A stretch of DNA of 64,000 nucleotides from Actinomycetota bacterium (GTDB lineage Bacteria; Actinomycetota; Acidimicrobiia; Spongiisociales; UBA4744): positions 12-64,011 of the forward strand of contig JAADGS010000036.1 of assembly GCA_013152275.1 (NCBI GenBank). Reading direction: 5' to 3'. This document shows positions 19,074 through 59,553 of the stretch, one piece after another. A program made the translations under genes and the position numbers. Numbering within the stretch: the first letter of the stretch is position 1; every line of letters begins with the position of its first letter. The notes below the pieces were generated by a model. The model ran no database searches. It had not been told where the DNA came from and worked only from the letters and a program-made list of their open reading frames with translations.

Positions 19074-20036
19074 CTACGCTCGATCGACACTCGTCTTGGC
19101 GTCGATGAAGGCATCGAGGTCGATTCGATTGGTGATGCCTGCGTCAGAGCCGAGTCCGGTTGCCACGAGGCTGCCGGCGGCGACGCCGAGCTCGGAGGCT
19201 CCGACCGGGTCGCGGCCCTCGATGAGACCGACGATGAATCCTGCGCTGAAAGCATCGCCACATCCGGTCGTGTCGACAACGTCGACGGCGTATGCAGGAA
19301 CCTGGGCCTCGATCGTGTTACCGACCCCGACGCAGGCGCCATCTGCGCCCAGGGTGATCACGGTGGCGCCGACGCCGCGGTGATGAAACCATTGCACGGC
19401 GTCGGACAGCGTCGACGTGCCCGAGAGCATGAAGGCGTCCTCATCGTTGGGAAGGAAGTAGTCGAGGTAGGGGAAGCACGGTCCGAGTACTGCGTCGACA
19501 TCGGCTCCAGGCATGCCGATGATGTCGAGCGTGGTGGTCACCCCTGCTTCCTTCGCGCGTTTGAGGGTGTTCGCCGTGGGCGCACCGTCGAAGGATTCCA
19601 GCAGGAACGTCCCACCAACGTGGAGCACGGTTGCAGACTCGATCTTCTCCCAGTCCAGGTGATCGCTGGAGAGGAGGGCGTTGGCGCCGATCACGTGCAG
19701 GGCGGGTCGCTCCCCGTTCGGTCGAATGGGGAGCATTGTCGCCGATGTGGGGGCGTGATGGTCAACGGTGAGTCCGGCAACGTCGATACCCTCTCGTTGC
19801 ATCTTCTCGATCAGCCAGACGCCGAGTTCGTCATTCCCGATGACTCCGAATGTTGCCACGCGCATCCCCAGGCGAGCCAGGTCGACCGATGTGCCCGCTG
19901 CCGTCCCCGCCACGGTCATGCGGATCTCTTCGAGGAGAGCGACACCTTGTCCTTCAGGAACCGCGGGAACCGGCCGACCGAGGATGTCGACGATGTGAAT
20001 GCCAACTGTTACAACGTCGATACCGTTGTCACTCAT
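19074..20036 (-). CDS. PfkB-family carbohydrate kinase
   Basis: Ribokinase-like; signature DTTGCGDAFSAGF near the C-terminus. Divergent from the ABC importer genes. Confidence 0.9.
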   Translation of the reverse strand: MSDNGIDVVTVGIHIVDILGRPVPAVPEGQGVALLEEIRMTVAGTAAGTSVDLARLGMRVATFGVIGNDELGVWLIEKMQREGIDVAGLTVDHHAPTSATMLPIRPNGERPALHVIGANALLSSDHLDWEKIESATVLHVGGTFLLESFDGAPTANTLKRAKEAGVTTTLDIIGMPGADVDAVLGPCFPYLDYFLPNDEDAFMLSGTSTLSDAVQWFHHRGVGATVITLGADGACVGVGNTIEAQVPAYAVDVVDTTGCGDAFSAGFIVGLIEGRDPVGASELGVAAGSLVATGLGSDAGITNRIDLDAFIDAKTSVDRA

Positions 20037-20129
20037 GTTCACTCCGTTCCTTCGAGTCATCCGCGTTCTCGGCCATCAGCGGCGACAAAGTCGCCGACGA
20101 ACGACCGACGCGTTTCGCAATACGGTCGG

Positions 20130-21327: not shown

Positions 21328-21443
21328 TTGGGACGGTCAGAGGGAACACACAGAGAAGTGACGGGAGAAGATGTGGTGCCGGATCGATACCGATCCGGCA
21401 CCGCATTGAGGCCGGTCGCTACGCTGCGAAAGGTGATGAGCTC

Positions 21444-23000
21444 TTGAACGACAGGTCGCTGGGCCAGACACGACAGGGCTCGTCGGAGACCGCCCTACGG
21501 ATGACGGCCATCTCGAAACGCTTTCCCGGTGTGCAAGCCCTGGATCGGGCCGACCTGCTCGTTGAGCGCGGCGAGGTCCATGGTCTCGTAGGCGAGAACG
21601 GTGCCGGGAAATCGACCATCATCAAGGTACTGGCCGGTGTCTATCGATGTGACGACGGTGTCGTCGAAATCGGCGGAACCGTCGTCGACCCGATAACGCC
21701 CCAAGTGGTGCATGACCTGGGTGTGAGGTTCATCCACCAGGAACTCAACCTGGTGCCGCACTTCACGGTTGCCGAGTCCGTATTCATGGGACAAGAGAAG
21801 AGCGGCCTGTTCGGCATACAGAAGCGAGCCATGAGGGCCGCAGCGGAGGCGTTCCTGCATGACGCACTACGCGCCGATATCGACGGCAACGCATTGATTC
21901 GAGCCCTGAGCGTCGCCGATCGAAAGCTGGTCCAGATAGCGAGAGCGCTGATCGACGGTCAGGCGCGTCTCGTCGTGTTCGACGAACCCACCGCGGTCCT
22001 GCCGGCAGCAGATGTCGATAGCGTGTTCGAGTCGATTCGTGTGCTGAAAGAGCGTGGCATCGCGATGGTCTACGTGTCCCACTACCTGGCCGAGATCACC
22101 GAGATATGTGACCGAGTCACGGTGTTCCGTAACGGCAGGACTGTCGGGGTCGTCGACGACGCCGCCGAGGCGGGTGTGGGAGAGATCATCAAACTCATGG
22201 TCGGGCGCGACCTGGGCGAGCTCTTTCCCGAGAAGAACCGCGTGCCGGCGGAACCGGTTCTTCAGATCGAGAACCTGTCGGACGGCCGCCACTTTCGTGG
22301 TGTGTCCTTCGAGGTTTGTGCCGGTGAGACCGTCGGTCTGGCCGGACTCGTCGGGTCCGGACGGGAGGAACTCGTCGATGCGATATACGGAATGCGCCGA
22401 ATACGGACCGGCAGTGTCAAGCTGAACTCGGAGCAGTTGCAGTTGGGCGACGCCGCCGATGCGGTGGCGAAAGGTCTTGTACTCGTGCCGCGAGACCGTC
22501 GCAACCACGGCCTCGTCCTCGGATTCTCGGTGGGGGACAACATCAATCTCGCCAGCCTGGACGAAGTGGCGGTGCGAGGATGGCTCAAGCCTGCCGCCGC
22601 CACGGCAAGGGCAAACGGGATGATCGAGAAGATCGATGTCCGTCCCCGCGACCCGAATCGGATAGCCCGATTCCTCAGCGGTGGCAATCAGCAGAAGGTT
22701 GTGCTGGCTCGGTGGCTTGTCACGAAATCCACCATGTTCCTCATGGACGAGCCGACGGTCGGAGTCGATGTCGGTGCGAAGGCCGAGATCTACCGCCTGA
22801 TCGCCGAGTTGGCGTCCGCCGGTGCCGGAGTGCTCGTTGCCTCGCATGATCTGGGGGAGTTGATGGGCTTGTGCGATCGGGTCCTCGTGATGGTTCGCGG
22901 CGAGATCGTTGCCAACGAAAGGGTGGAAGACCTCACACTCGATGAGCTGCTCGCGCTCACGACGGCCAGTCAATCCGAGGCCGCAGGCAAGGCGTCCTGA
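21444..23000 (+). CDS. sugar ABC transporter ATP-binding protein (two ABC domains, RbsA-like)
   Basis: GENGAGKST / VVFDEPTAVL in the first domain and LSGGNQQKVVLARWL / FLMDEPTVGVD in the second. The TTG start is uncertain. Confidence 0.9.
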   Translation: MNDRSLGQTRQGSSETALRMTAISKRFPGVQALDRADLLVERGEVHGLVGENGAGKSTIIKVLAGVYRCDDGVVEIGGTVVDPITPQVVHDLGVRFIHQELNLVPHFTVAESVFMGQEKSGLFGIQKRAMRAAAEAFLHDALRADIDGNALIRALSVADRKLVQIARALIDGQARLVVFDEPTAVLPAADVDSVFESIRVLKERGIAMVYVSHYLAEITEICDRVTVFRNGRTVGVVDDAAEAGVGEIIKLMVGRDLGELFPEKNRVPAEPVLQIENLSDGRHFRGVSFEVCAGETVGLAGLVGSGREELVDAIYGMRRIRTGSVKLNSEQLQLGDAADAVAKGLVLVPRDRRNHGLVLGFSVGDNINLASLDEVAVRGWLKPAAATARANGMIEKIDVRPRDPNRIARFLSGGNQQKVVLARWLVTKSTMFLMDEPTVGVDVGAKAEIYRLIAELASAGAGVLVASHDLGELMGLCDRVLVMVRGEIVANERVEDLTLDELLALTTASQSEAAGKAS

Positions 23001-24001
23001 TGACTTCTCTCGACACCGTCGCGTTCCGCAGATGGGATCGGTCTCGTATCAGCGGCTTCCTGATCGTACGCGGCCCGTTACTCGTATTCGTCGTCCTGCT
23101 GGTCTATATGGCGCTCAGCTCGCCGTTCTTCCTCGAGGGGAGGAACATCGCCAGCATCCTCAGACAGAGCGCGCCCGACGCCATCTTGGCAATGGGGTTG
23201 GCCGCAGTCGTCATGGCCGGTGGTGACGACATCGTCGTCGGAGGGATCGACATCAGTATTCCCGCAGCGTCGGTGCTCGGCGTTGCGATCATGGCGGACC
23301 TGCTCACCGCCGGTGATGCCCCGTTGGGCGTTGCCTTCCTTCTTGCGGCGTTGGCGGTCCTTGCCGTGGGGGTCGTGAACGCCCTTCTCGTCGAAGGAAT
23401 CGGCCTCACCCCACTGTTGGCGACACTCGCGACGTCGGTCGCCGTGGTCGGTATCACGCGATGGGTGACGAACAACCGCCGGATAACGGTGGAGAACGCC
23501 GTCATCAGCCAGATCCGGGATGGGAGCGTGCTCGGTGTTCCGATCCCGGCATTGATCATGGTGGTGACGTTCGGGATCGTCGGATTCTGGCTCCATCGAA
23601 CACGTTTCGGCCTCCGCCTCCAGGCCGTCGGCGGGTCTCGCAGTGCGGCGGAGATGTCCGGACTTTCCACCAGGAAGTACATCGCGAGCTCCTTCATCAT
23701 TGCGAGTGGGGCCGCTGTCGTTGCCTCTGTCGTTCTGATCGCCCGTGGATCCGGAATGTCGCCTGGGATCGAACAGCAGCTTCTGCTGGACATGGTGCTG
23801 GCGACATTTGTCGGTGCGGCATTCTCTTCGCGGCGTGTCGTCACGATTCCGGGAGCTTTGTTGGGTGCTGTGCTCGTCAAGGCGCTCTCGATCGGATTCC
23901 AGCTGCTCAACGTCGACATCTTCAAGGTCGGCATGGTGAAGGGTGTGCTCATTCTCTTCGTGGTAGCGACGGCCGCGGTTGACAGTCGGGAGAGCCAATG
24001 A
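23000..24001 (+). CDS. sugar ABC transporter permease (RbsC-like) 1
   Basis: Start overlaps the previous stop (TGATG). Multi-TM, BPD_transp_2-like. Confidence 0.9.
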   Translation: MTSLDTVAFRRWDRSRISGFLIVRGPLLVFVVLLVYMALSSPFFLEGRNIASILRQSAPDAILAMGLAAVVMAGGDDIVVGGIDISIPAASVLGVAIMADLLTAGDAPLGVAFLLAALAVLAVGVVNALLVEGIGLTPLLATLATSVAVVGITRWVTNNRRITVENAVISQIRDGSVLGVPIPALIMVVTFGIVGFWLHRTRFGLRLQAVGGSRSAAEMSGLSTRKYIASSFIIASGAAVVASVVLIARGSGMSPGIEQQLLLDMVLATFVGAAFSSRRVVTIPGALLGAVLVKALSIGFQLLNVDIFKVGMVKGVLILFVVATAAVDSRESQ

Positions 24002-25002
24002 TCTCCGCAGAGGAAAGAGCACGGACGGGAGCAGAGGAGACGACTGCGTTCAACCTTCGCGCGCTGCTCGGTCGGTACGCCTTTCTCCTCGTACTCATGG
24101 GGTTCGTCGTCTTCTTCTCGGTGCGAACCGACGCATTCCTGAGCCTCGGCAATCTCGTGAATGTTCTCGAAGGGAACGCGGTCCTCTTGATCGTCGCTTT
24201 GGCGATGACCCTGGTGGTCGCATCGGGGGGAATCGATCTGTCCGTCGGTATCGCGGTGGATTTCGGGGCGGCGTTTGCCGTGGTCGCGATGAAGGACTAC
24301 TCGGTCACTTGGCAGATCGCCGTGGTGATCGCGGTGATGGGAGGAGCCATCGTCGGATTGCTGAATGCATTTCTCATCGTGCGTCTTCGAGTGAGCCCGT
24401 TCCTTGCCACGCTCGGCACACTCTTCATCGGCGGCAGCGTCCAGCGGATCTACACGAACGGAGGAGGACAGGTCTCGTTCCGCAAGATGCCGGAGGGTTA
24501 TCGCAACCTCGCCGTCGGGTCCATCTTCGGGATACCTACCGAGATCGTGATCGCAGCCGCCGTGCTCGTGGTGTACTTCGTCATGCTGGAGCGCTCGACA
24601 CACGGGAAGCGAATCCACGCCATCGGTCTCCAGTCCGAAGCTTCCGTCGTGGCGGGGATACGCGTCAAGCGATACCGATGGTTCGTCTATGTCGCAGCGG
24701 CGGCCACCTGCGCCATCGGCGGTGTGATCCTCACCGCCGGACTGCGTCAGTACACCCCGCTGGCCGGTTTCTCGTACCTGCTCGATGCGATCGGGGCGGT
24801 GTTCATCGGTGCGGCCATGCACCCTCGCCGCCGACCCAACATTCCCGGAACTCTGATCGGCGTGTTGTTCCTGGGTGTGGCGACCAACGGATTGAATCTG
24901 ATGGGTGTCGACTTCAACTTGAAGGCGGCACTCACCGGGATCATCCTCGTCGGGGCGCTGGCGTTCTCTGCACTACAGCGCCGTGTCACCGCGGACGGCT
25001 AG
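23998..25002 (+). CDS. sugar ABC transporter permease (RbsC-like) 2
   Basis: ATGA overlap. Multi-TM paralog of the preceding permease. Confidence 0.9.
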   Translation: MISAEERARTGAEETTAFNLRALLGRYAFLLVLMGFVVFFSVRTDAFLSLGNLVNVLEGNAVLLIVALAMTLVVASGGIDLSVGIAVDFGAAFAVVAMKDYSVTWQIAVVIAVMGGAIVGLLNAFLIVRLRVSPFLATLGTLFIGGSVQRIYTNGGGQVSFRKMPEGYRNLAVGSIFGIPTEIVIAAAVLVVYFVMLERSTHGKRIHAIGLQSEASVVAGIRVKRYRWFVYVAAAATCAIGGVILTAGLRQYTPLAGFSYLLDAIGAVFIGAAMHPRRRPNIPGTLIGVLFLGVATNGLNLMGVDFNLKAALTGIILVGALAFSALQRRVTADG

Positions 25003-25035
25003 GACACGACAATCGATACACAGCTGCGCTTTCGT

Positions 25036-26193
25036 TTGGCTTTGCCCCGCTCCCTCCACATCGGTCGGGGGTCGGCATCCGAGCTACCGAACCTCGTTGC
25101 ACGCCCGGGACAACGAGTCGCAGTGATCGGTGGTGCGGGCGCGGCGGCGACGAACGTGGCGGACATCCTGACGCGCGCAGGGTGTTCGACACAGAGATTC
25201 ACTCGACATGGAGAGCCGACACTCGAATCTGTCGAAGAACTCGTCGGCGTGGTAGCGGAGTTCCTGCCGCAAGTCGTCGTCGGCGTAGGAGGCGGCAGCG
25301 CCATCGACTCGGCGAAGGCAGTTGCGGCATTGATTCCCAATCGCGGCCGGCCGTTGTCCGACTATTTCCAGGCGGGAGCAGAAGCGCCGGCGCTCGGTCA
25401 TGACCCACTTCCCTGCATCGCAGTCCCGACCACCGCCGGCACCGGGGCGGAAGCCACGGCGAACGCCGTTGTATCGATTGCCGGGCGCAAGGTCTCGCTG
25501 CGGGACGCCCGACTGGTTCCCTCTGCGGCGGTCGTCGACGCCGACCTCGGTGGCGGCGTTCCCTTTGGTGCGCGCGTTGCTGCGGCGTTCGATGCGGTGG
25601 TGCAGCTGATCGAGGCGTATGCGACACCGCTGGGAAACTCGTTCTCCTCGGGCCTGGCGTACGCAGGGGCGAAGTTGGCCTTTCCGGTCCTGGAGCGCAT
25701 CATCTCCGGATCCGAGAGTGCGGACGATCGGCAGGTGATGGCAACCGGAGCCACGTTGAGCGGCCTGGCCCTGGCCAACGCCAAGTTGGGTACGGTGCAC
25801 GGTCTCGCCGGTGTCGTCGGTGGGCGAACCGGCCAGGCACACGGCTCACTGTGCGGACTCTTTGCCGGACCGGTGCTGGGCACCACCATCTCGATTCTGC
25901 GCAAAGCCGCATCTCCCGACCCTGCCTTGGCGCGGTATCGGGACCTTGCCCGGTTGTGCACCGGGCATCCATTCGCCGAGGCGGAGGATCTCGCAGAGTG
26001 GATCGGTGGCCACGCCATGGCGGCAGATCTGCCTCGGCCCGATATCCCGATCGCCGTGCGACGTGAAATCGCCACCGGCGCGACCGGGGCATCTTCCACC
26101 GCAGGGAATCCCGTCGCCATTCCGGTTCAGGAGTTGGTCGGCATTCTCGCGAAGGTCGCGAGAGGAAACGTGGAGGACGTCAACGATGGCTGA
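25036..26193 (+). CDS. iron-containing (group III) alcohol dehydrogenase family protein
   Basis: VGVGGGSAIDSAKAVA and TTAGTGAEAT motifs. TTG start assumed. Confidence 0.82.
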   Translation: MALPRSLHIGRGSASELPNLVARPGQRVAVIGGAGAAATNVADILTRAGCSTQRFTRHGEPTLESVEELVGVVAEFLPQVVVGVGGGSAIDSAKAVAALIPNRGRPLSDYFQAGAEAPALGHDPLPCIAVPTTAGTGAEATANAVVSIAGRKVSLRDARLVPSAAVVDADLGGGVPFGARVAAAFDAVVQLIEAYATPLGNSFSSGLAYAGAKLAFPVLERIISGSESADDRQVMATGATLSGLALANAKLGTVHGLAGVVGGRTGQAHGSLCGLFAGPVLGTTISILRKAASPDPALARYRDLARLCTGHPFAEAEDLAEWIGGHAMAADLPRPDIPIAVRREIATGATGASSTAGNPVAIPVQELVGILAKVARGNVEDVNDG

Positions 26194-27655
26194 ACTCATT
26201 GTCTCCATCGACATCGGCACATCCGTGATCAAGGCCGGGGCCTACACAGAAGTCGCCGGGCTCGTTGCGATGGAGCACCAACGAACAACAAGCCTGCCAG
26301 ACGGTTCGGTCGATGCCGAGGCTGTCTGGGGAACCACATGTCGAGCGATCCGATCGCTGTTGGACCGGCCTGAGATGGCAGGCCACCGCGTTGCAGCCGT
26401 GGTGGTAACGGGGCAGGGGGATGGTCTCTGGACCATCACTGCGGATGGAACGGCGGCCGGTCCGGCATATCAATGGAACGACGCCCGTGCCGACGAGGTC
26501 GTGGCGGGGTGGGAGGCGGACGGGACGATCGCGGCCGCCTATCGCCTCAACGACACGGTCGTGTGGCCGGGAACGTCCGGCGCGCTGTGGGTGTGGCTGC
26601 ACGAGAACTCTCCCGATCATGTGCGGCGGACGCGTTGGGTCGTCTGTGCCCCGGATTGGATCAACTACCGCCTGACAGGCGAGGTCGCGACGGACGTCTC
26701 CAACGCCGGCATCCCCTTTCTCGATCCGGATTCACGGACGTGGAGCACCGAGCTCATCGGCATCCTTGGCTGTGAGGACATCGCAGCGCGCCTGCCAAAG
26801 GTGCTTCTGCCGGGAGATTCGCTGGGGACGGTCACCCAGAGAGCGTCTCGTGAGACCGGGCTGGCTGCCGGCACACCTGTGGTGATGGGAGCGATCGACG
26901 TTGTGGCCATGTTTCGAGGTGTGGGTTTCGAAGACCCGGGTACCGTTGTTGCGGTGCTCGGTACGACGGCGGTGGCACTGGCATGCGTGACGGGTCGTGC
27001 AGATCCGACGGTGCAGGTCGGGGCAACGGTGCCGTTTCCAGAGCCGGGACGGTTCCTGCGCGTCATCGGTGCGAACTCGGGAACGTCCACGTTGGACTGG
27101 TATGTGCGAGAGGTTCTCGGAGGTCCCCTCGACGCTGCGGCGCTGGATCGTTTCTGGAAGGAGGTCGGCAACGTGTCTGCAGAGTCGGCCCATGTGATGC
27201 TCCTGCCGTTTCTCGCCGGGGAACGGGCGCCATTCTTGGCCCCGGATGCGACAGGGACGTTCCTGGGCATCAAACCGACGACCAAGCGAGCGGACCTGTC
27301 ATACGCGGTAGCCGAAGGCATCACCATGTCCCTGCGTCACTGTGTCGAAAGCGCCGCCGGGGAGCCCACGGCAATTCTTCTGTCAGGTGGGGGGGCGACG
27401 AGTCGTGAGTGGCAGCAGATGGTGGCCGACGCCTTGGGGCACGAGATCATGGTCGACGGCCATCACGATCGTGCATGTGCAGGTGCAGTCTCGTTCGTCA
27501 CGGGGTCGCTGCCCGGCGTTCCTCACGATATCGATCGGCTGAAACCGGCCAGATCGGAGGCGATCGAGGAGCGCTTCGCCGCCTATGTGGCGTTGACCGG
27601 CCTCATGCAGCCGATCTGGCGCCGTCTGCATTTCACCACGAGGAGAGTTCCATGA
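26186..27655 (+). CDS. FGGY-family carbohydrate kinase (xylulokinase-like)
   Basis: MAELIVSIDIGTSVIKAG N-terminus and C-terminal LLSGGGATSREWQQMVADALG. The internal ATG at 26186 overlaps the ADH stop by 8 nt. Confidence 0.88.
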   Translation: MAELIVSIDIGTSVIKAGAYTEVAGLVAMEHQRTTSLPDGSVDAEAVWGTTCRAIRSLLDRPEMAGHRVAAVVVTGQGDGLWTITADGTAAGPAYQWNDARADEVVAGWEADGTIAAAYRLNDTVVWPGTSGALWVWLHENSPDHVRRTRWVVCAPDWINYRLTGEVATDVSNAGIPFLDPDSRTWSTELIGILGCEDIAARLPKVLLPGDSLGTVTQRASRETGLAAGTPVVMGAIDVVAMFRGVGFEDPGTVVAVLGTTAVALACVTGRADPTVQVGATVPFPEPGRFLRVIGANSGTSTLDWYVREVLGGPLDAAALDRFWKEVGNVSAESAHVMLLPFLAGERAPFLAPDATGTFLGIKPTTKRADLSYAVAEGITMSLRHCVESAAGEPTAILLSGGGATSREWQQMVADALGHEIMVDGHHDRACAGAVSFVTGSLPGVPHDIDRLKPARSEAIEERFAAYVALTGLMQPIWRRLHFTTRRVP

Positions 27656-28719
27656 TTCCTGAGAGGATGCGCGTCGGCGTCTACTACGGACCGGATGACA
27701 TTCGCGTCGAGGAGCGCCCCGTTCCCGAGATCGGACCCGACGAGGCGCTGGTGCGCACCTTGGCATGCGGTTTATGCGCCGGTGAGGCGATGGAGTGGTA
27801 TTCCACCAAAGAGGGTGGCAAGGTGCTCGGGCACGAGCCGGTGGGTGTCGTCGTCGCGGCAGGAGTGGACGTCGACGCAGTGCATGTGGGCGACCGCGTC
27901 TTCGTCAACCATCATGTCGGCAGACTCCAATCTCATTGGGCGATCCGGGGCCACTACACACGTGATCCGTTCTATGCCGGCAACCGCCTGGATCCGGGAG
28001 GGATGGCCGAGTACTTCCGGGTCAGTGCCAACCATCTCAGGGCGGACGTGCATGTGCTTCCCGAGTCGATCGGAGATTCCGTTGCGACGACGATCGAGCC
28101 GTGGTCGTGCGTACTGGGCGGTCTCAAGACATGTGGTGTGCAACCGGGGGATACCGTGGTGGTTCTTGGGTGTGGCTTCATGGGCCTGGGGTTCGTTCAC
28201 ATGGCGCCGCTGTTCGGCGCCGGGACGGTGATCGCGGTCGATTTCTCGAGTTGGAGACGCGACAAGGCCACCGAGCTTGGCGCAACCCATGTGTTGGATG
28301 CCGCCGACCCGGATCTGGCATCGAAGGTTCGCTCGCTCAACGGGGGGTTGCTCGCCGACGTCGTCGTTGCCGCCGTGCCTGCCATCTCCGCTTGGGATTC
28401 TGCCAGGACGCTCGTCGAACCAGGTGGGACGGTGCACCTTGGAGCTCCCACCAAGCCTGGAACGGTGTGGGCGCTCGACGGCTTCGATGCGTATTTCGAC
28501 GAGGTGACGATTACCTCCAAGTACTCCGCAGACCATCGGGACACCTATCAGCTCATCCGTCTGATCGAGTCGGGTCGGGTCAACCCGCTTGCAGCCATAA
28601 CCCACCACTTCGCACTGGACGATCTTGCCGACGGCTTCCGGCTTCTCACCGAGGCAGATGAATCGCTCAAGATCGTTGTGTATCCACACATCCATGAGGA
28701 GGAGAACGATGCTCGATAG
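27652..28719 (+). CDS. zinc-dependent alcohol/polyol dehydrogenase (MDR)
   Basis: ATGA overlap. CGLCAGE, GHEPVGVV and VLGCGFMGLGF motifs. Confidence 0.9.
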   Translation: MIPERMRVGVYYGPDDIRVEERPVPEIGPDEALVRTLACGLCAGEAMEWYSTKEGGKVLGHEPVGVVVAAGVDVDAVHVGDRVFVNHHVGRLQSHWAIRGHYTRDPFYAGNRLDPGGMAEYFRVSANHLRADVHVLPESIGDSVATTIEPWSCVLGGLKTCGVQPGDTVVVLGCGFMGLGFVHMAPLFGAGTVIAVDFSSWRRDKATELGATHVLDAADPDLASKVRSLNGGLLADVVVAAVPAISAWDSARTLVEPGGTVHLGAPTKPGTVWALDGFDAYFDEVTITSKYSADHRDTYQLIRLIESGRVNPLAAITHHFALDDLADGFRLLTEADESLKIVVYPHIHEEENDAR

Positions 28720-29353
28720 CCTGCGGGAAGAAGTGCTCGAGATGAATCTCGAACTGCCGAGGAACCGGTTGGTCATCTGGAGCGGTGGCAATGTCAGCGG
28801 GAAGGATCCGGAAACGGGCCTCATTGTCATCAAGCCGAGCGGTGTGCCGTTCGCCAATCTCACCGCCCGGTCACTGGTGGTTGTCGACATCGATGGAAAC
28901 GTGGTCGAGGGAGATCTCACCCCTTCGGTCGATCTCGGAGTGCATCTCTACGTGTACCGGCGACGTTCCGATGTCGGTGGCATAACGCACACACATTCAC
29001 CGTATGCGACGAGCTTCGCCCTCAACGGGCAAGGGATTCCCGCGGCGCTCACCGCCCTCACCCACCTCATCGGGAGCGGGGTTCCGTGCAGCCGGTATGC
29101 CACACCGGGTGCCGAGGACACCGGGTCTGCGATCATCGAGGTCACCCAGGACCATGGCATGGCGGCCTTGGTGGAACGTCACGGAGTGTTCACGATGGGG
29201 CGCTCGGCAAGCGAATCCGTCAAGATCGCACTCCATGTCGAGGAAGCGGCGATGACGATCAGGCTGGCGGAGCAGTCATGCACCGTCACCGAAATGGACC
29301 CCGTCGAGATCGACCGGTGCCACCGCTGGTACCAGGTCAACTACGGCCAGTAG
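28709..29353 (+). CDS. class II aldolase/adducin-family protein (L-ribulose-5-P 4-epimerase-like)
   Basis: GNVSGKD...IKPSGV and GITHTHSPYATSFA motifs. 11-nt overlap with the upstream gene. Confidence 0.88.
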   Translation: MLDSLREEVLEMNLELPRNRLVIWSGGNVSGKDPETGLIVIKPSGVPFANLTARSLVVVDIDGNVVEGDLTPSVDLGVHLYVYRRRSDVGGITHTHSPYATSFALNGQGIPAALTALTHLIGSGVPCSRYATPGAEDTGSAIIEVTQDHGMAALVERHGVFTMGRSASESVKIALHVEEAAMTIRLAEQSCTVTEMDPVEIDRCHRWYQVNYGQ

Positions 29354-29355: not shown

Positions 29356-30267
29356 CTATTCGGCGATGAGGCGCTGAGCGGTCTCGATATCGGTCACGAG
29401 GCCGTTGAGCAAGTTGCCGCGCAACGCTCCCCGCAGCGCTTCGACCTTGTCGGGCCCTCCCGCTATCCCGACCCGCACGGGGATCATCGAGAAGCTCTCC
29501 AGGTTGAGTGCCAGCACGAGGTCGGTCACCGGCGAATCCACCGGAGAACCGTCTTTGTCGAAGAAGTGGGCGTTGATGTCGCCGACGGCTCCGGCAGCCT
29601 TCAGCTCGTCGGCCTGCTCCTTGGTGAGTGTTCCGGTCAACATGATGGAACTTCCGGGGGTCGATCCTCCGACGCCGACGAGGGCGAGATCGCACGTCCT
29701 TGCCATGTCGAACACCCGTTGGACGTCGGGCTCCGATCGCAGCATCATCGCCGTCTCGCGTGCCTGGGGCAGGACCGGAACGGCGAGGTCATGCGAGGAA
29801 CCGCCGAACTTGTGAGCCAATTCAAGAGCGATATTGCTTGGCGTTGGTGGCACGACAAGACCGGGATTCGTTCCCTGGAGCGGAATGAACTCGGCGGATA
29901 CGCTCGACGAGGGCTTCATGTACGAGACTGCCAGGGCCAGGGTTGTCGAAAGCCCCACGCCGATCCGCATGCCGTTGGTGATGAGATGCACGATGCAGTC
30001 GGCGGCCAGGTGGGCGATCGGATCGGCCCGGTTTGCGGAGTTGGTGGGTGCAACCCAGACATGGTCGAGGTCGTACTTGTCGGCGAGGGCGTTCTCCTCG
30101 GCGATGAAGAGACCCTCATCGGTGTGCACCTCGATGGTCACGATGCCAACCCGACGCGCCTCGGCGAGAGCACGGGTGACACGGATGCGGGAGACCCCCA
30201 ACAGATCGGCGATCTCTTGGTGGGTGAGGTCGTACTCGTAGTAAAGGCGAGCAACACGTCCGAGCAC
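29356..30267 (-). CDS. SorC/DeoR-family sugar-binding transcriptional regulator
   Basis: N-terminal VARLYYEYDLTHQEIADLLGVSRIRVTRALAEARRVGIV plus a sugar-bind domain. GTG start. Confidence 0.9.
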   Translation of the reverse strand: MLGRVARLYYEYDLTHQEIADLLGVSRIRVTRALAEARRVGIVTIEVHTDEGLFIAEENALADKYDLDHVWVAPTNSANRADPIAHLAADCIVHLITNGMRIGVGLSTTLALAVSYMKPSSSVSAEFIPLQGTNPGLVVPPTPSNIALELAHKFGGSSHDLAVPVLPQARETAMMLRSEPDVQRVFDMARTCDLALVGVGGSTPGSSIMLTGTLTKEQADELKAAGAVGDINAHFFDKDGSPVDSPVTDLVLALNLESFSMIPVRVGIAGGPDKVEALRGALRGNLLNGLVTDIETAQRLIAE

Positions 30268-30451
30268 TAGGGTCCACTCCTACCTGTTGTTGGACGAAAG
30301 TTCGTGGACAGACTAGAGCCCCGACTCGGCCGGCGCGGGGTCGGTCGATTCGCAAGATGCCTCCGGACGGTACCGTGGGTTCGTTGGTTTTGCATTACTC
30401 CCGCCACTCATTTTGAACACTGGTGCGACCACCTGTACCATTGTACACCGA

Positions 30452-31618
30452 ATGAAGGGTCATCACACACCTGTCTCGCCCTTGTCGCCGGTCCGGCTCG
30501 CCTTGTCCGGGGAGCGCTTCGGGGCGGTCTATGCCTTGGTCGGGGACAGGGAATCCGTGAGGAGGGTTGCCGACCAGCTCGTTGTTGAGCAGACGATCGA
30601 GTTTCCGCGTGATCTCGTGCCCGATGACGACATCCAGCGCGAAGTGATCGCGCACATCGAGCGGCTCGACGAGGTGGGAGACGGGGCGTTCGAACTGGAG
30701 GTGTCCTTTGCCGTCGAGTTGGCCGGCGGACTCCTCTCCCAGCTTCTCAATGTTCTCTTTGGGAACATCTCGATGGTCGCCGGCGTCCGCCTTGTCGACG
30801 TTGCCTTACCCGCGAGCCTGCTCGCGAACTTCGCCGGACCTCGCAACGGTATCGAAGGGCTCCGAAGGTTGTTCGATCGAGAGACGGGCCCGCTTCTGGC
30901 AACCGCGCTGAAACCGATGGGCACCCCTGTGGGCGATCTGGCCGGTTTCGCCTTCGATCTTGCCGCGAACGGAATCGACCTGATCAAGGAAGATCACTCC
31001 TTCGCAACCCAGCCGTTTCTTCCGTTTGCGGACCGCGTTCCGGTCTTGGCCGAGGCAGTGCGGCGGGGAGCTGACGTGCGGGGCGCACCGGCGGTCTTCC
31101 TTCCGGCCTTGAATGTGGCACACGAGGATGTCGAATCTTCCATAGATCTCTGCATCGAAGCCGGAGCCGGGGGCGTGTTGGTGCTTCCAGGGTTGGGAGG
31201 TCATGACACGATGCGGTGGATTGCCGGCAATACTCCCGACGACTTCGTCATACAGGCGCATCCGGCATTCCTCGGTTCTTTCGTCACATCCCCGGATTCC
31301 GGGATAGCGCATGAAGTGCTGTTCGGTGTGTTTCCCCGCCTCGCCGGCGCCGACATGTCCATCTTTCCGAATTTCGGAGGCCGGTTCAGCTTCTCTCGAG
31401 ACGCCTGTTCGCGTATCGCCGAACGGTGTCGATCGCCTCTGGGAAACCTCCGAGCGGTGTGGCCTGCTCCGGCAGGAGGCATGAGTGTGGAGAAGGTGGG
31501 TGCAACGCTCGAGTTCTACGGGCCCGACACGACCCTGTTGATCGGAGGCGAGCTGTATCGAGGGTCGATCGAAGAACAGGTGAAGCGGATGGTGGACGCA
31601 GCTCTGGAAGGACAATGA
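30452..31618 (+). CDS. RuBisCO-like protein (form IV large-subunit homolog)
   Basis: RuBisCO large-chain core with TALKPMG (cf. KPKLG), GIDLIKEDHSF (cf. FTKDDE) and PAPAGGM. The start may be 30413 (TTG) or 30452 (ATG). Confidence 0.85.
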   Translation: MKGHHTPVSPLSPVRLALSGERFGAVYALVGDRESVRRVADQLVVEQTIEFPRDLVPDDDIQREVIAHIERLDEVGDGAFELEVSFAVELAGGLLSQLLNVLFGNISMVAGVRLVDVALPASLLANFAGPRNGIEGLRRLFDRETGPLLATALKPMGTPVGDLAGFAFDLAANGIDLIKEDHSFATQPFLPFADRVPVLAEAVRRGADVRGAPAVFLPALNVAHEDVESSIDLCIEAGAGGVLVLPGLGGHDTMRWIAGNTPDDFVIQAHPAFLGSFVTSPDSGIAHEVLFGVFPRLAGADMSIFPNFGGRFSFSRDACSRIAERCRSPLGNLRAVWPAPAGGMSVEKVGATLEFYGPDTTLLIGGELYRGSIEEQVKRMVDAALEGQ

Positions 31619-32532
31619 TGGAAGATTGGAAGGTCGAGGTCAGCCAGGCTGCACTCGGGATCCGGCGGCAGGTTCTGGACTACACGGTCCGTAACGGTGG
31701 TGGGTACTTGAGCCAGGCCTGCTCCTCGGCGGAGCTGTTCGCTTTGCTGTACCTGCGGATCATGAACATCGGGCCGAGCGAGGCTCCGATGGTCCCGGAA
31801 CCGTTCCTTGGAGTGCCGGGACCGAAGAACCTCAACTACCGAACGGGGGCGGCGTACAACGGACCGATCGCCCCGGATCTGGACCGCTTCATCCTGTCCC
31901 CGTCGCACTATGCGCTCGTTCACTACGCAACGCTGGTCGAGGTGGGTCGCATGTCGGCAGAGGGATTGGCGATGTTCAATCAGGACGGCCAGTCGGTGGA
32001 GATGATTGCAGCAGAGCATTCTCCCGGCAGCGAAGTGATGGGTGGCTCCCTGGGACAGGCCCTGAGCCAGGCGTCGGGCATCGCCTTTGCCAGGAGGCTC
32101 AAGGGCGACACCGGTCGTGTCTGGGTGTTCATGTCCGATGGCGAGTTCCAGGAAGGGCAGACCTGGGAGGCGATCGAAGTCATGTCGTTCCAGAACCTGG
32201 ACAACATCGGCATCTATGTGGATGTCAACGGTCAGCAGGTCGATGGGCGGATGGAAGATGTCATGCGGATCGAGCCCTTGGCAAGTCGCCTCGAAGCGTT
32301 CGGTGCCCGCACATTCTCGGTGGATGGGCACGATCTCGACGCTCTTGCCGAGCCTGCAACGCTGGATCCCGACGGTCGTCCCCTGGTTGTTCTGGCCTAC
32401 ACCGACCCCTGTCGCGGAATCCCACTTCTCGAGGAGCGACGGCCGATGCTTCATTACGTCCGGTTCAAGAGTGAGGACGAACGACAGATGTACGCGAACA
32501 CGCTCGCCGGCTGGCAGAAAGGCGTCCACTGA
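31615..32532 (+). CDS. transketolase, N-terminal (TPP-binding) subunit
   Basis: ATGA overlap with the RLP stop. GSLGQALSQASGIA and MSDGEFQEGQTWEA motifs. Confidence 0.9.
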   Translation: MMEDWKVEVSQAALGIRRQVLDYTVRNGGGYLSQACSSAELFALLYLRIMNIGPSEAPMVPEPFLGVPGPKNLNYRTGAAYNGPIAPDLDRFILSPSHYALVHYATLVEVGRMSAEGLAMFNQDGQSVEMIAAEHSPGSEVMGGSLGQALSQASGIAFARRLKGDTGRVWVFMSDGEFQEGQTWEAIEVMSFQNLDNIGIYVDVNGQQVDGRMEDVMRIEPLASRLEAFGARTFSVDGHDLDALAEPATLDPDGRPLVVLAYTDPCRGIPLLEERRPMLHYVRFKSEDERQMYANTLAGWQKGVH

Positions 32533-33539
32533 TGGAGATGGTTGCGAACGCTCACGAACGAACCTTTGTCGAGTGGGCCAAGGACAAACCGGAGGTGCTC
32601 GTCCTCTCTGCCGACCTGACAAGCTCGGTGGAGATCAGGCTCTTCAAGCAGACCTACCCCGAACGATTCATATCGATGGGCCTGACCGAGCAGCACATGA
32701 TGAGTTTTGCCGCCGGTTTGGCTCGCGAGGGCTATTACCCGTTCCTGCACACCTTTGCGGTATTCCTCTACCGGCGTCCTTACGACCAGCTGGCGATGTC
32801 GGTGGCATATGCGAATCTCCCGGTACGCCTGGTCGGATTCCTGCCCGGCATCACGACACCCGGTGGTGCAAGTCACCAGGCCATCGATGACATCGGAGTC
32901 GTACGGATGCTTCCCAATATGACGATCGTCGAAGCAGGCGATGCGAGCGAGGTCGAACAGATCATCGGCGTTGCCCACCAAGTCGACGGACCCGTGTACA
33001 TCCGGCAGCTTCGAGGGGAAGTTCCGCGCCTTTTCGATCCCTCCGAGCGAATGGCGCTCGGCAGGGCCCGTCATCTCAGCACCGGGACCGACATCACCCT
33101 GTTGTCGTCCGGCATCTGCACGGAGGAGGCGATGCGAGCGACGGCGGTCCTCAAGTCGCGCGGGGTCGGTATCGAGCATTTACACGTTTCCACTCTCAAG
33201 CCCTTCGACGATCCGGCGGTTACCGAAGCGGTGGCGTCGGCAAACCGCGGTGTGATCACCATGGAGAATCATTCCGTGGTCGGGGGCCTGGGCTCGGCGG
33301 TGGCCGACCTGATTGCAGAGAACGGACTCGGTTCCCATTTGCGCAAGATCGGCTTGCGCGACACATTTGCCCATGGCGCCTCTCGTCCTTATCTGATGAA
33401 GCACTATGGTCTCGATGCCACGGCTCTGGTTCGGGAAGTGGAACAGGCCATCGGGGAACCGTTGGGGATCACGGCGGACGATCTCGCCTCCGCCCGTCTG
33501 GATGCTGTGCACAGCCTCGCAAAGGCAGAGGCACTGTAG
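32532..33539 (+). CDS. transketolase, C-terminal (pyrimidine-binding) subunit
   Basis: TGATG overlap. GLTEQHMMSFAAGLA motif, followed by a C-terminal transketolase domain. Confidence 0.9.
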   Translation: MEMVANAHERTFVEWAKDKPEVLVLSADLTSSVEIRLFKQTYPERFISMGLTEQHMMSFAAGLAREGYYPFLHTFAVFLYRRPYDQLAMSVAYANLPVRLVGFLPGITTPGGASHQAIDDIGVVRMLPNMTIVEAGDASEVEQIIGVAHQVDGPVYIRQLRGEVPRLFDPSERMALGRARHLSTGTDITLLSSGICTEEAMRATAVLKSRGVGIEHLHVSTLKPFDDPAVTEAVASANRGVITMENHSVVGGLGSAVADLIAENGLGSHLRKIGLRDTFAHGASRPYLMKHYGLDATALVREVEQAIGEPLGITADDLASARLDAVHSLAKAEAL

Positions 33540-34115: not shown

Positions 34116-35225
34116 ATGAGTCTCAGGGCGGTGATCGTGGCGCTGGCCTTGGTGGTTGGCGGCTGCACCGTCGCAGACACGGCGCCGTCATCGACCGCGG
34201 TTGCATCCACGGTGACGGTGTCCAGCACGTCGATCGCTCCCGTCTCCGGCGAGCGGACGCCTACCACCCGCTGGGGTTTCGTTCCCTTTCCCGCCGGCCC
34301 GAACGAACAGTCCGTCGGTGACGCGTTTCGGTTTGTTGCTGCCGAAGGTGACCTCGTCGCCTTCCATTTCGACGACGGAATACCTTGGGAGGGCCTGCTG
34401 GCGGACTCCGACCTGCCACCGGCGCTCGTCGGGGAGATGGCGTCCCTGAAGGCGTTCGCCGCGCAGAACCCGCAACTCGGCGTGTATGTCGCGACCGCCA
34501 TCACCGACCAGACTCGCAGCGGTATCCCCGGTTCGTGGAGGGCAGGGGGCCCGCCGGCGTCGGTCGCCGGGCGGTCATTCGACGACCCGGAGGTCCGGGA
34601 GGGGATTCGGCGTTGGGTGCGGTACCTGGCCGACGAGTTCGAACCGGACTGGTTCAACCTGGCTGTCGAGATCAACATGTACGAAGTTGCCCAGCCGACG
34701 GACTATCCGAATCTCGTGTCGCTGTACCGGGAGTTGTACGAAGAAATCAAGGCGGCACACCCCAAGACCGTGGTTTTCGCATCGTTCCAGATGGAACTGG
34801 GCGACCCTCGTGCCGCAGCCGACCTCGTCGACACTCTCGACATCATCGGCATCTCCACGTATCCATACGTGACAGGGAACGGCTTTCCTGCGGAGGAGTA
34901 CTTCGATTCCATCGCCGATCTCGGTCTGCCCCTTGCGGTGGCCGAGACCGGGTATCCGGCGGCGGCGCTCCCCACTCTGGCAGGCAGACAGACGTTCTCG
35001 CCATCCGACCAGGCCGACTACGTCGAATGGCTGGGGCGGAGGGCAGAGACGCCGGGTCTGGTCTTCGTGGCCTGGTTCTTCCCGACCGACATCACCGCCT
35101 GGATCGACGCACTTCCCCCGTCGGAGCAGGACGTGCCGCGTCTCTTCGAATCTCTCGGTATGCGCACCGCCGACGGAACCGCCCGACCGGCTCTCGACGT
35201 GTGGCGCAGGTTGGTCTCACCTTGA
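34116..35225 (+). CDS. secreted lipoprotein, clan GH-A-like glycoside hydrolase (tentative)
   Basis: Lipobox VVGGC. TIM-barrel-like pattern with NLAVEINMY (acid/base-like E) and LAVAETGYP (nucleophile-like E). Confidence 0.6.
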   Translation: MSLRAVIVALALVVGGCTVADTAPSSTAVASTVTVSSTSIAPVSGERTPTTRWGFVPFPAGPNEQSVGDAFRFVAAEGDLVAFHFDDGIPWEGLLADSDLPPALVGEMASLKAFAAQNPQLGVYVATAITDQTRSGIPGSWRAGGPPASVAGRSFDDPEVREGIRRWVRYLADEFEPDWFNLAVEINMYEVAQPTDYPNLVSLYRELYEEIKAAHPKTVVFASFQMELGDPRAAADLVDTLDIIGISTYPYVTGNGFPAEEYFDSIADLGLPLAVAETGYPAAALPTLAGRQTFSPSDQADYVEWLGRRAETPGLVFVAWFFPTDITAWIDALPPSEQDVPRLFESLGMRTADGTARPALDVWRRLVSP

Positions 35226-35681: not shown

Positions 35682-38261
35682 TCACACGGCCAGCTCGGCC
35701 GCTGCAACACCTGTCGCTTGAGTCCCTTGGCGTAGGCACAGTTCCTTCAGGTTCATTGCCAGGAGTGGTGTGATCGTGAGAGCATCCATCGGTCGGGCGA
35801 AGAGGTAACCCTGGCCCGTACGGCACCCCAACTGGCGAAGCCACTGGAACTCTTCGGGTGTCTCGATGCCCTCGGCCACCGTGCTCAACCCGAGGATGTC
35901 GCCGATTTGTACGATCAGGCGTGCAAGCGGGGATTGCTGTTCGAGTGCCGCCCCATGAACGAACGTCCGGTCGATCTTGACGATGTCGATTGGTAGCCGG
36001 TGCAGGTACGCCAACGACGAGTACCCGGTCCCGAAGTCATCCAATGCAATCCGGATTCCGAGTTCTTTGAGCTGGTGGAGGACCTGCGTGTATGGCTGCA
36101 GCATCACGTTCTCGGTGATCTCGACGACGAGGTATTGCGCGTCGAGTCCCGACTCGGTGAGGGCCCGGCGTACCTCGTCGATGATGTCTGGCTCCTCCAA
36201 CTCCCGGGGAGAGAGGTTGACCGAGATAGTGGGCTTGGACCCTTTGCTCTCGTCATGCCAGCGGCGCATCTGACGGCAGGCAGTGGGCAGGACCCACCGT
36301 CCCAGCGCGACGATCTGTCCGGACTGTTCGGCTGCAGGGATGAACATGTCGGGGAAGAGGAGACCGCGTTCCGGATGGTTCCATCGGACGAGTGCTTCCA
36401 CGCCGGTAACGCGGCCGGTCTCCAGGTTCACGATGGGTTGGTAGTGGAGGACGAGTTCGTTGCGTTCAATGGCCAGAGCGAGTTCCGTATGCAGCATCGC
36501 AGCGCCTATCCACCGGTCCTGGAAACCCTCTTCGAACACCTGATAGGATCCCTTGCACCTGCTCTTGGCGGCGTACATGGCCTGGTCGGCGCGATGGATC
36601 AGCTCTTCGGGGCCCAGGTTCGCTTCCACCAGGGCGATTCCCAGACTCGCTTGGGCCGTGACGGCCTGACCGGCGATGACGAGCGACTCCTTGAGTGACT
36701 CGGCGATTCGTGCGGCCACGACGGTGGCGTCGCCGGGTGCGGAGAGGTGATCCAACAAGATGGCGAATTCATCGCCACCCAGTCGGGCGACCGTATCTTC
36801 GGGCCGACAGCAGGCTTCGAGACGGCGCGCCACCCTGATCAGGACCTGGTCGCCGGCCACGTGGCCCAGCGTGTCGTTGATCGTCTTGAAATCGTCGAGA
36901 TCGAGGACCAGCACCGCCGATTGTCTGTCTTGTGTGTTTGCCATTTCGAGTGCTTCTGTGAGTCGCTCCCAAAGAAGGGCTCGGTTCGCCAGTCCGGTGA
37001 GGACGTCATGAAGAGCCCGGTCTCGGAGGTCGTCTTTCAGCTTCGTAACCTGCGCGAGGGAATCTTCGAGCCTTCCGTTCTCCAAGGACACGGTGACCTG
37101 GCTCGCCAGAGTTTCGAGCATGCGGAGATCCTGCGCCGTGAAGTTCCGCAGGTCGCCCATCGGCTCGCTCACGACCATCACGCCATTGACTTTCCCTGGT
37201 CCGTGCACCGGTACCAACATCCGATGCCGCCCATTCGACCGCCGCGCGTGTTGATCGGATCCACACGACAGGAGGCGTGAGCGACCCGAGTTCAACACGT
37301 CTCGCCATGCCTCGCCACCGGTGTCCGGTTCGATACGGTGGATGACCCGCGTGTGTTCATCGGGTCCGGCGGCGGCCAGAAAACCGTCACCGTTCGGACC
37401 AGTCGGGAAGACACGGAGCTCGGCACGTTCCGCGTCGAACATCGACCGGGCGTGTGTGACGGCTGCAAGCATTGCGGCTTCGACCTGGGGCGACCGGTGC
37501 AGAGCCCGGGTTGCCTCGTACAAGCCCTGGATCCGCTGCCTTTCCTCGCGCTGTGCGACGTAGGCACGGTAGGCCAGATAGAGGGCCACCGGAGGTACCG
37601 CAGCAGTCCAGGCGGTGCCGGGTCGGGTCCACATGACGGTGACCGCCACCAAGCCCAAGGCGGCGTTGATCGCCGACGACACGGTCAGTAGCTTCAATGC
37701 GTCGATCCGCTCCGAAGCAGAGAGGTCGCCGCCGGAGAGGGCGATGGCGGTATTGACGAGCACGCTTGCGAGCACGAGCCCGACCGCAACTGCAACCAGA
37801 GTGCCGATCCAGCCGGCAACACCGAGAGGGTCTCGTGTCCCAAGGATCAGTCGAAATACGACGATGCCGATCCCGGTCTGGAGAGTGAGCATGGCAAGGT
37901 TGAACGCCGCTTTCAACGGCGACTGCCTGCGGTAGAGAATCAACGCCAACGCGTTGCCGACGATCTGCGCGGCGATCAGACCGAGCGGGTCCACGAAGTA
38001 CAGCCCCACCACCAAGGGAACTTCTCCCATGGCGAATACGTGGGCGTTCCTTCGGAACTGTAGGGATACGACGGCGACCTCACCGGCAAAAACGAGCGGC
38101 ACCATCACCATCCAGTTGAGGTGGAACGGCGCATCCAGAAGGGAGAATCCTGAAGCCACGTAAGCCAGGGCCACTGCTGCCGCACTCATGACCCCCGTGA
38201 GTGCCCACACTCTGCCCGGTCCGGTCAGGTGGCGTCGCAAGGACTGATGTGCTTCTGCCAT
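35682..38261 (-). CDS. membrane sensor diguanylate cyclase/phosphodiesterase (multi-TM, GAF, GGDEF, EAL)
   Basis: About 8 N-terminal TM segments and a GAF-like region. Motifs [27 protein letters not shown] and VAEGIET. Confidence 0.92.
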
Positions 38262-59552: not shown

Positions 59553-59553
59553 G

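Follow-up and report, generated by a model that had tools for sequence, protein, structure and literature searches.

Why should a gene for a RuBisCO-like protein (RLP) be locked to the two genes of a split transketolase, and on which sugar would the three products act? The question is raised by a stretch of 64,000 nucleotides (hereafter, the window) from an Actinomycetota bacterium of the class Acidimicrobiia (assembly GCA_013152275.1, contig JAADGS010000036.1, positions 12 to 64,011), in which an RLP gene overlaps the first of two transketolase subunit genes, and these overlap each other. The initial annotation of this DNA did not recognize the combination, and our full-text literature search likewise turned up no description of it, which does not prove its absence. 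The cassette seems to represent an undescribed sugar-phosphate pathway. In the reading we favor, to which we give about an even chance (0.5), the RLP would isomerize a pentulose-1-phosphate, possibly substituted at C5, and the transketolase would cleave the product, the cassette being placed in other genomes downstream of a ribose-1-phosphate-type isomerase. What is new here is a separate RLP clade locked to a remodeled transketolase, whereas the protein families themselves and the nearest pathway, that of an RLP and a cupin, were already known.

Anatomy and conservation of the cassette

The RLP gene (30452-31618) runs from an ATG at 30452 to a TGA at 31616-31618 and encodes 388 amino acids (aa) with the Pfam domain RuBisCO_large. 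Its stop codon shares an ATGA with the start of the gene for the diphosphate-binding subunit TK-N (31615-32532, ATG at 31615, TGA at 32530-32532; 305 aa, Pfam Transketolase_N), which is preceded by an AGGA-type ribosome-binding motif. The stop of TK-N in turn shares a TGATG, with an overlap of 1 nucleotide (nt), with the start of the gene for TK-C, the subunit with the pyrimidine-binding and C-terminal domains (32532-33539, ATG at 32532; 335 aa, Pfam Transket_pyr and Transketolase_C). All three genes lie on the forward strand. The reading frames give exactly the overlaps first described for this locus, and the translational coupling proposed at the time is backed by these junctions and by tight ones in relatives.

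Relatives were retrieved by scanning one genome per species with two clade-specific peptide patterns, which yielded at least 201 species representatives. The best 80 of 201 loci (39-61% identity over the best-matching segment) entered a neighborhood census, for which genes were taken from our own calls of open reading frames (ORFs), backed by homology; counts of loci given below refer to this census. The split transketolase adjoins the RLP in 72 of the 80 species-level loci, in the order TKN-TKC-RLP in 67 and RLP-TKN-TKC in five, and three or four of the eight loci lacking an adjacent transketolase end at a contig edge. Of the 112 gene junctions in 56 complete cassettes, 99 are overlaps or gaps of at most 10 nt (median, -1 nt). 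Among the hosts are Actinomycetota, Chloroflexota, Myxococcota, Alpha- and Gammaproteobacteria, Nitrospirota, and Bacillota, to which separate look-ups added Acidobacteriota and Symbiobacteriaceae. In members of the Myxococcota, Clostridia, Nitrospirota, and Acidobacteriota the cassette forms an isolated module in otherwise unrelated surroundings, and the cassette is therefore a conserved unit in itself. Since the pairing is kept across many phyla in two gene orders, the genomic evidence supports the view that the RLP and the split transketolase form one functional unit, as is implied by the earlier suggestion that the RLP product may feed the transketolase directly. RLP matches with 36-40% identity were also found on replicons of Ensifer, Rhizobium, and Shinella. 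The curated models of NCBI give the cassette proteins generic names only. In one locus (L086) the genes for TK-N and TK-C are separated by a Cytidylate_kin2-family gene (10940-11611), whose 223-aa product has no match in NCBIfam.

Residues and relationships of the two enzymes

The RLP matched RuBisCO_large (PF00016) with 60.7 bits (cut-off 30.1) and found 99 RuBisCO or RLP sequences among solved structures. Its residues were called by alignment to a bona fide RuBisCO (PDB 6HUN). The motif ALKPMG pairs with PKPKLG of 6HUN, with K175 kept (K154 of the RLP) and K177 replaced by M156; LIKEDH pairs with LVKDDE, with K201 (K179) and D203 (D181) both kept and E204 replaced by H182; H294 is kept as H270, R295 is replaced by P271, and H298 by L274. 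The Glu in the KEDH of the window protein is its own peculiarity, the clade consensus being KDDH (80 of 81 sequences). The catalytic domain is thus present and the carbamylatable Lys kept, but the carboxylation residues are gone. Because four of the residues are replaced (K177 by Met, E204 by His, R295 by Pro, H298 by Leu), the window RLP is, judging by its residues, a form IV protein. The initial annotation had arrived at the same class and had pointed out the conserved Lys of KPxG and carbamylatable Lys, the His at the second acidic ligand, and the Met in place of the second Lys; the 6HUN alignment and the Pfam match agree on all of these.

Among solved structures the closest relative is 3QFW (E value 1e-67, 232 bits, 36% identity), followed by 4NAS with 129 bits. 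The 3QFW sequence is 100% identical to the DeepYkr RLP1 of Rhodopseudomonas palustris, established in vivo and in vitro as the 5-methylthioribulose-1-phosphate 1,3-isomerase of the 5'-methylthioadenosine (MTA)-isoprenoid shunt (PMC5893883). RLP1 is the closest characterized RLP, is of similar size (both about 370-390 aa), and has in common with the cassette RLPs the Lys-Pro-x-Gly motif, a KDDH with His at the second metal-ligand position, and the motifs HPA, FPNxGGRF, and LLIGG. A neighbor-joining tree, which is a distance tree with one partial outgroup, recovered DeepYkr as one clade and the transketolase-linked RLPs as its sister; the latter holds the window RLP, that of Brucella anthropi, and a few members without a transketolase. 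The window RLP does not fall inside DeepYkr, to which it is 34-36% identical, against a mean of 47% within its own clade. At the variable position of K-P-x-G, Met is found in 77 of 81 transketolase-linked sequences and Gln in 12 of 12 DeepYkr sequences, most other motif positions being identical. It had been asked whether the RLP might belong to a clade of known function whose members always have this transketolase as a neighbor; the nearest characterized clade, DeepYkr, neighbors a cupin instead. The closest relative found (locus L089) has an RLP 73% identical to that of the window. Identity as MtnW, the 2,3-diketo-5-methylthiopentyl-1-phosphate enolase, is not supported, as the scores lie below the cut-offs of both YkrW/MtnW models (NF007095, 145.8 against 409; TIGR03332, 95.3 against 513.6).

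The solved proteins most similar to the transketolase subunits are those of the split transketolase of Carboxydothermus hydrogenoformans (6YAK for TK-N and 6YAJ for TK-C). As in this canonical enzyme, three domains are spread in the same order over two chains, the SDG...N motif for thiamine diphosphate (ThDP) and Mg is present, and the activating Glu of MGxxEQ is kept. Unlike in the canonical enzyme, TK-N has NGGY in place of SGH and SDGEF in place of GDGE, together with an insertion of about 25 aa, and the His to Tyr change in NGGY is invariant (16 of 16 aligned TK-N sequences). TK-C carries the signature FLPGITTPGGxTHQ where the C. hydrogenoformans enzyme has THAGLTVGEDGASHQ; here the His and the Asp for the donor tail are replaced by Leu and Gly in 70 or 71 of 72 sequences, with a one-residue deletion. 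The same replacements occur in B. anthropi and Agrobacterium. Three substrate-binding residues of canonical transketolases are therefore not kept; they correspond to His30, His469, and Asp477 of the yeast enzyme. In the yeast and Escherichia coli enzymes, the His of SGH helps to deprotonate the C3 hydroxyl of the donor, and the lost His and Asp bind the phosphate of the donor tail and the C4 hydroxyl. The replaced tail-binding positions have become Leu, Gly, and Phe, and an extra invariant Arg lies near the cofactor segment (TFAVF[IL]YRR). By these signatures the cassette transketolase is a distinct subfamily, probably catalytically active and built for an unusual substrate.

Identity as 1-deoxy-D-xylulose-5-phosphate synthase is not supported: the model TIGR00204 scored 164 against 466 and with TK-C only, the protein is split, and the best solved match is a transketolase. 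The two parts of the window cassette also differ in their closest homologues. TK-N (72-77%) and TK-C (67-69%) are nearer to Chloroflexota/Anaerolineae homologues than to those of Nitriliruptoraceae (53-63%), whereas the RLP is nearest to Nitriliruptoraceae (about 60%) and more distant from Chloroflexota (44-52%). The window cassette may be a mosaic in which the transketolase genes were gained separately.

Neighboring genes and the proposed pathway

Neighbors were ranked by unbiased all-against-all clustering of adjacent ORFs and by targeted tblastn, with concordant results. An IF-2B-family isomerase was found in 46 of the 80 loci, a SorC-type regulator in 43 (the commonest regulator beside the cassette), a sugar ATP-binding cassette (ABC) transporter in about 34, an APH-type kinase in 31-35, a class II aldolase fused to a short-chain dehydrogenase in 25 (about one third), a DeoC-family protein in 21, and an RbsD-like protein in 19. 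The IF-2B neighbors pass the equivalog cut-off of MtnA (390-435 bits against 279) and were rejected as ribose-1,5-bisphosphate isomerases (166-200 bits against 314), the kinase passes that of MtnK (395 against 275), the DeoC-family protein passes the model of the thiolase LsrF (349-401 against 297), and the RbsD-like protein passes the cut-off for D-ribose pyranase.

Individual loci add to this picture. Two cultured bacteria show the arrangement mtnK-mtnA-transketolase-transketolase-RLP in their RefSeq annotation, Agrobacterium sp. MA01 and, on its plasmid pOANT04, Brucella (Ochrobactrum) anthropi ATCC 49188; a divergent sugar ABC transporter and an aldolase/dehydrogenase are found beside it. 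The Chloroflexota-type locus L094 begins with a nucleoside phosphorylase of the uridine/purine type and a nucleoside ABC transporter of the Bmp type, which are followed by the IF-2B isomerase, TK-N, TK-C, the RLP, and SorC; L086 adds a ribulose-phosphate 3-epimerase. In L054 the IF-2B isomerase lies directly beside the RLP with no transketolase, a layout that suggests that the RLP takes the isomerase product. Another RLP without transketolase (L071, 3339-17629) has nearby a class V aminotransferase, two YeeE/YedE-type sulfur-transport proteins, an FGGY kinase, a 2-hydroxyacid dehydrogenase, SorC, and a molybdopterin oxidoreductase, with an E1-alpha/E1-beta/E2 ThDP dehydrogenase complex downstream of the RLP. 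This complex hints that a ThDP-dependent cleavage step is a constant requirement. A molybdopterin oxidoreductase akin to that of L071 is encoded after the cassette in L006 and takes the place of the Fe-dehydrogenase in L001.

From these neighborhoods a route can be proposed. In most genomes a pentose-1-phosphate would be supplied by the MtnK-like kinase or by a nucleoside phosphorylase, and the MtnA-like isomerase would convert it to a pentulose-1-phosphate. The RLP would bind this compound, most likely as a 5-substituted D-ribulose-1-phosphate derived from 5-methylthioribose or 5-deoxyribose, the candidates for the 5-substituent being methylthio, hydrogen, and hydroxyl. Enolization, as in RLP1, would shift the carbonyl to give a 2-keto-pentose-5-phosphate, in the form of a 1-substituted xylulose- or ribulose-5-phosphate, and the epimerase of L086 fits such a product mix. 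The two-subunit ThDP enzyme would then cut between C2 and C3 to release a triose phosphate and a two-carbon fragment, filling the place that the cupin methylsulfurylase holds in the RLP1 pathway. In the window, the ketose phosphate would come from the adjacent operon, with its importer, dehydrogenase, and FGGY kinase, under the shared SorC regulator.

This proposal has its closest parallel in the RLP1 and cupin system of the MTA-isoprenoid shunt of Rhodospirillum rubrum and R. palustris (PMC5893883), where an MtnA-type isomerase also acts upstream and the RLP gene is also directly flanked by that of the next-step enzyme. A cupin adjoins two DeepYkr RLPs, including RLP1 of R. palustris, which is the known methylsulfurylase position, but none was found beside the RLP in the window or in the 80 loci, where the transketolase stands instead. 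Also unlike in that system, the partner is a two-subunit ThDP enzyme, and the cassette occurs in many phyla, often within operons for sugar or nucleoside uptake. The dihydroxyacetone phosphate (DHAP) shunt and 5-deoxyribose salvage (MtnK or DrdK, MtnA or DrdI, and the class II aldolase Ald2 or DrdA; PMC6079011, PMC8102628) share the same first two enzyme types and optional sugar transporters. In those routes the committed step is taken by the aldolase, whereas here it would be taken by the RLP and the transketolase. The third of the loci that add the aldolase-dehydrogenase fusion would have both branches together, comparable to R. palustris, which runs both routes.

Several observations weigh against the proposed route. 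The RLP is only 36% identical to RLP1, belongs to a sister clade outside DeepYkr, and has Met where DeepYkr has Gln. An MtnK/MtnA-dependent salvage cluster was seen in relatives (46 of the 80 loci have the isomerase and 35 the kinase) but not in the window, where tblastn found no mtnK or mtnA homologue within the 64 kb and the operon beside the cassette looks polyol-catabolic. The transketolase has lost the donor-tail residues (yeast Asp477 to Gly, His469 to Leu), which is unexpected if glyceraldehyde-3-phosphate leaves. The D-ribose pyranase homologue, as well as the uridine/purine nucleoside phosphorylase and Bmp transporter, favor ordinary ribose or nucleosides over by-products of S-adenosylmethionine (SAM). 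Finally, neither a paper on the RLP-transketolase cassette nor biochemical or genetic work on any of its members was found in the literature, absence not being proven.

The nature of the 5-substituent divides the proposed route further. The MtnK and MtnA scores, the kinship with DeepYkr, the LsrF-like thiolase, the sulfur-transport genes of L071, and a dedicated, remodeled transketolase point to a sugar left over from SAM. In the most specific form of this idea, the cassette would be a third widespread route for the ribose moiety of SAM by-products (MTA and/or 5'-deoxyadenosine), in which the new RLP clade makes 1-methylthio- or 1-deoxy-xylulose-5-phosphate and the remodeled enzyme performs chemistry other than that of a transketolase. 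After cleavage, the fragment on the cofactor could lose methanethiol by beta-elimination and so become an acetyl unit, in the manner of phosphoketolase or sulfoacetaldehyde acetyltransferase, or a hydroxyethyl group could be transferred instead. Such a route would be independent of oxygen and would not need a thiol reductant, but we put it forward tentatively and consider it unlikely in this specific form. In the census of neighboring ORFs, neither acetate kinase nor phosphotransacetylase recurred, nor did a cupin, an MTA phosphorylase, or an O-acetylhomoserine sulfhydrylase, and the neighborhood therefore gives no hint of what becomes of the two-carbon fragment or any methanethiol.

A GhrA-like 2-hydroxyacid dehydrogenase of the glyoxylate/hydroxypyruvate reductase family recurs next to the RLP in genomes that are not related, namely in L091 (pOANT04, 10203-11132), L001 (11191-12177), and L071 (7483-8571). 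Since hydroxypyruvate is a classic irreversible transketolase donor, this neighbor may bear on the two-carbon chemistry. Many loci of Acidimicrobiia have the LsrF-passing protein and a 94-aa muconolactone-isomerase-like protein beside mtnK (L083, 4663-5746; L086, 5830-6618). LsrF is the 3-hydroxy-5-phosphonooxypentane-2,4-dione thiolase, the known substrate of which is a 1-deoxy-pentodiulose-5-phosphate. Together with the adjacent dehydrogenase, these proteins could convert 5-deoxyribulose-1-phosphate to DHAP and acetyl-CoA in an aldolase-free branch of which no description is known to us.

Plain ribose, on the other hand, is indicated by the ribose pyranase homologue, by the locus that combines a nucleoside phosphorylase with a nucleoside transporter, and by the polyol-type operon of the window, and leads to the strongest competitor of the proposed route. 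Here the cassette would serve ordinary pentose, nucleoside, or pentitol catabolism: the RLP would convert plain D-ribulose-1-phosphate, or another unsubstituted pentulose phosphate, to xylulose- or ribulose-5-phosphate, which the transketolase would pass to the pentose phosphate pathway. The D-ribose pyranase homologue lies beside the cassette, above its cut-off, in about 19 loci, L094 has its uridine/purine-type phosphorylase and Bmp nucleoside transporter, and in the window and its closest relative the cassette goes together with a binding protein of the polyol type and two dehydrogenases, as well as with an FGGY kinase resembling xylulokinase and a protein resembling L-ribulose-5-phosphate-4-epimerase. 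The cassette would then be a bacterial analogue, without carboxylation, of the pentose bisphosphate, or AMP, pathway of Archaea, in which an IF-2B-family ribose-1,5-bisphosphate isomerase feeds a form III RuBisCO. The feeding of a RuBisCO-superfamily enzyme by an IF-2B-family isomerase in the breakdown of nucleoside ribose would be common to both, and L094 opens with a nucleoside phosphorylase and a nucleoside transporter; unlike in Archaea, the cassette isomerases score as MtnA and the RLP is without carboxylation residues. A housekeeping transketolase would handle xylulose-5-phosphate, which makes a dedicated enzyme hard to justify, all the more one that is always coupled and lacks the canonical residues binding the tail of that substrate. 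Moreover, the scores of the kinase point to MtnK and not to ribokinase, those of the isomerase to MtnA and not to ribose-1,5-bisphosphate isomerase, and the closest characterized RLP works on a methylthio sugar (PMC5893883). We hold catabolism of ordinary pentoses to be clearly less likely than the proposed route.

The loss of the Asp and the His in the transketolase keeps a further rival alive, in which this enzyme would cleave the ketose-1-phosphate itself between C2 and C3. Lactaldehyde or 3-methylthiolactaldehyde would leave and phosphate would be lost from the cofactor-bound fragment, as in phosphoketolase, and the RLP would be a C3 epimerase making the xylulo substrate or would act on another intermediate. 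The replaced residues normally bind a phosphorylated tail and are now hydrophobic or small, the extra Arg is invariant, and the usual order mtnA-TKN-TKC-RLP has the transketolase next to the isomerase. Against this, the isomerase in L054 adjoins an RLP with no transketolase, the RLP active site is like that of the 1,3-isomerase clade, and no transketolase is known to accept a 1-phosphorylated donor. In favor of this rival, a passage of PMC8102628 cites the suggestion of a transketolase-type cut of 5-deoxyribulose-1-phosphate in Methanocaldococcus jannaschii. Overall, we regard direct cleavage as quite doubtful.

The initial annotation had set the locus against the background of D-apiose routes, and on this reading an apiose-type RLP product would feed a transketolase of the apulose-4-phosphate type. 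Carter et al. are said to have described, in 2018, D-apiose pathways with an RLP decarboxylase (OiaX), a transcarboxylase/hydrolase, and a split transketolase for apulose-4-phosphate, the RLP and the transketolase reportedly belonging to alternative routes. These pathways resemble the cassette in that RLPs and a split transketolase act on unusual phosphorylated keto-sugars with ABC transporters in the cluster, and the importer, two dehydrogenases, and FGGY kinase of the window have the outline of the aldose to polyol to ketose to ketose-phosphate sequence of the apiose transketolase route. This framing is not supported. The RLP scored 57.6 bits on the OiaX model (NF042437; cut-off 700), groups with DeepYkr-type isomerases, and has RLP1 as its closest characterized relative; the recurrent partners across the 80 loci are mtnA and mtnK, with no recurrent apiose-pathway enzymes near the cassette; and the binding protein of the window has no specific match to apiose binders, being nearest to the ribose/polyol-type binders 3L49 and 4WT7. 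We therefore reject an apiose link on the OiaX family score and the neighborhood, and a variant apiose or acid-sugar pathway is very improbable. Mere adjacency of genes with unrelated functions is effectively refuted by the census (72 of 80 species-level loci, many phyla, two gene orders, overlapping junctions).

Surroundings in the window and wider meaning

The cassette of the window is divergent from a SorC/DeoR-type sugar-phosphate-binding regulator (29356-30267, reverse strand; Pfam Sugar-bind, 199 bits, and a helix-turn-helix). The 184 bp between the two (30268-30451) are the presumed promoter/operator region, in which the sole repeat is a weak, GC-rich, imperfect palindrome (30319-30340). 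A simple promoter and terminator scan at the cassette gave no signal above the shuffled background and no sigma-70 consensus in this spacer. Behind the regulator lies a tightly packed operon for uptake and catabolism (20242-29353, forward strand; assigned with Pfam and NCBIfam). It encodes the solute-binding protein (20242-21327), an ABC ATPase (about 21501-23000), two permeases (23000-24001 and 23998-25002), an Fe-alcohol dehydrogenase (25036-26193), the xylulokinase-like FGGY sugar kinase (26186-27655), a Zn-dehydrogenase (27652-28719), and a class II aldolase/epimerase similar to L-ribulose-5-phosphate-4-epimerase (about 28709-29353). The layout of operon, divergent SorC, and RLP cassette is exactly the same in L089, and a window-type operon adjoins SorC and the RLP also in L001 and L004. 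A further genome of the Nitriliruptoraceae shares this operon, the regulator, and the RLP, but in place of the transketolase it carries a 2-hydroxyacid dehydrogenase and a second aldolase. FGGY kinases such as rhamnulokinase make ketose-1-phosphates, and in the lineage of the window the ketose phosphate may be supplied by this dehydrogenase and FGGY-kinase route.

Other genes lie further from the cassette. A PfkB-family kinase is encoded upstream of the ABC operon (19074-20060) and another directly after TK-C in L090 (13230-14159), the best models for both being 5-dehydro-2-deoxygluconokinase and ribokinase, all below cut-off. Downstream of TK-C, at a distance of 475-575 nt, a predicted lipoprotein (34116-35225; signal peptide, lipobox-like VVGGC) that matches nothing in Pfam or NCBIfam probably forms a unit of its own. 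It is followed by a large membrane protein with GGDEF and EAL motifs in its translation (35682-38261, reverse strand), convergent with the cassette region; GGDEF/EAL genes near the cassettes of L090 and L092 are probably a coincidence. A xanthine-dehydrogenase-family molybdoenzyme (45363-47753) with its FAD subunit (48126-48956), both on the reverse strand, and a forward-strand group (53683-62856) of an amidohydrolase, a 1199-aa Fer4_20/Pyr_redox_2 protein, two aspartate/ornithine-carbamoyltransferase-family proteins, a carbamate-kinase-like protein, and a pyridoxal phosphate enzyme look like a fermentative catabolic cluster for N-heterocycles of the purine type.

Only a handful of RLP functions are known, and each of them so far has been a new chemistry on the RuBisCO scaffold. 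The clade described here is large, extends over many phyla, and includes culturable and genetically tractable organisms such as Brucella (Ochrobactrum) anthropi ATCC 49188, Ensifer adhaerens, Agrobacterium, and Chloroflexus sp. MS-G. Because its obligatory partner is a transketolase subfamily with three replaced substrate-binding residues, solving the pathway would assign a function to two enzyme families together, which is of interest for the study of RuBisCO-like proteins, of methionine and 5-deoxyadenosine salvage, and of ThDP enzymes. If the substrates are sugars left from the use of SAM, the cassette would be relevant to the recycling of sulfur and carbon in soils and waters, environments in which Acidimicrobiia and Chloroflexota abound.

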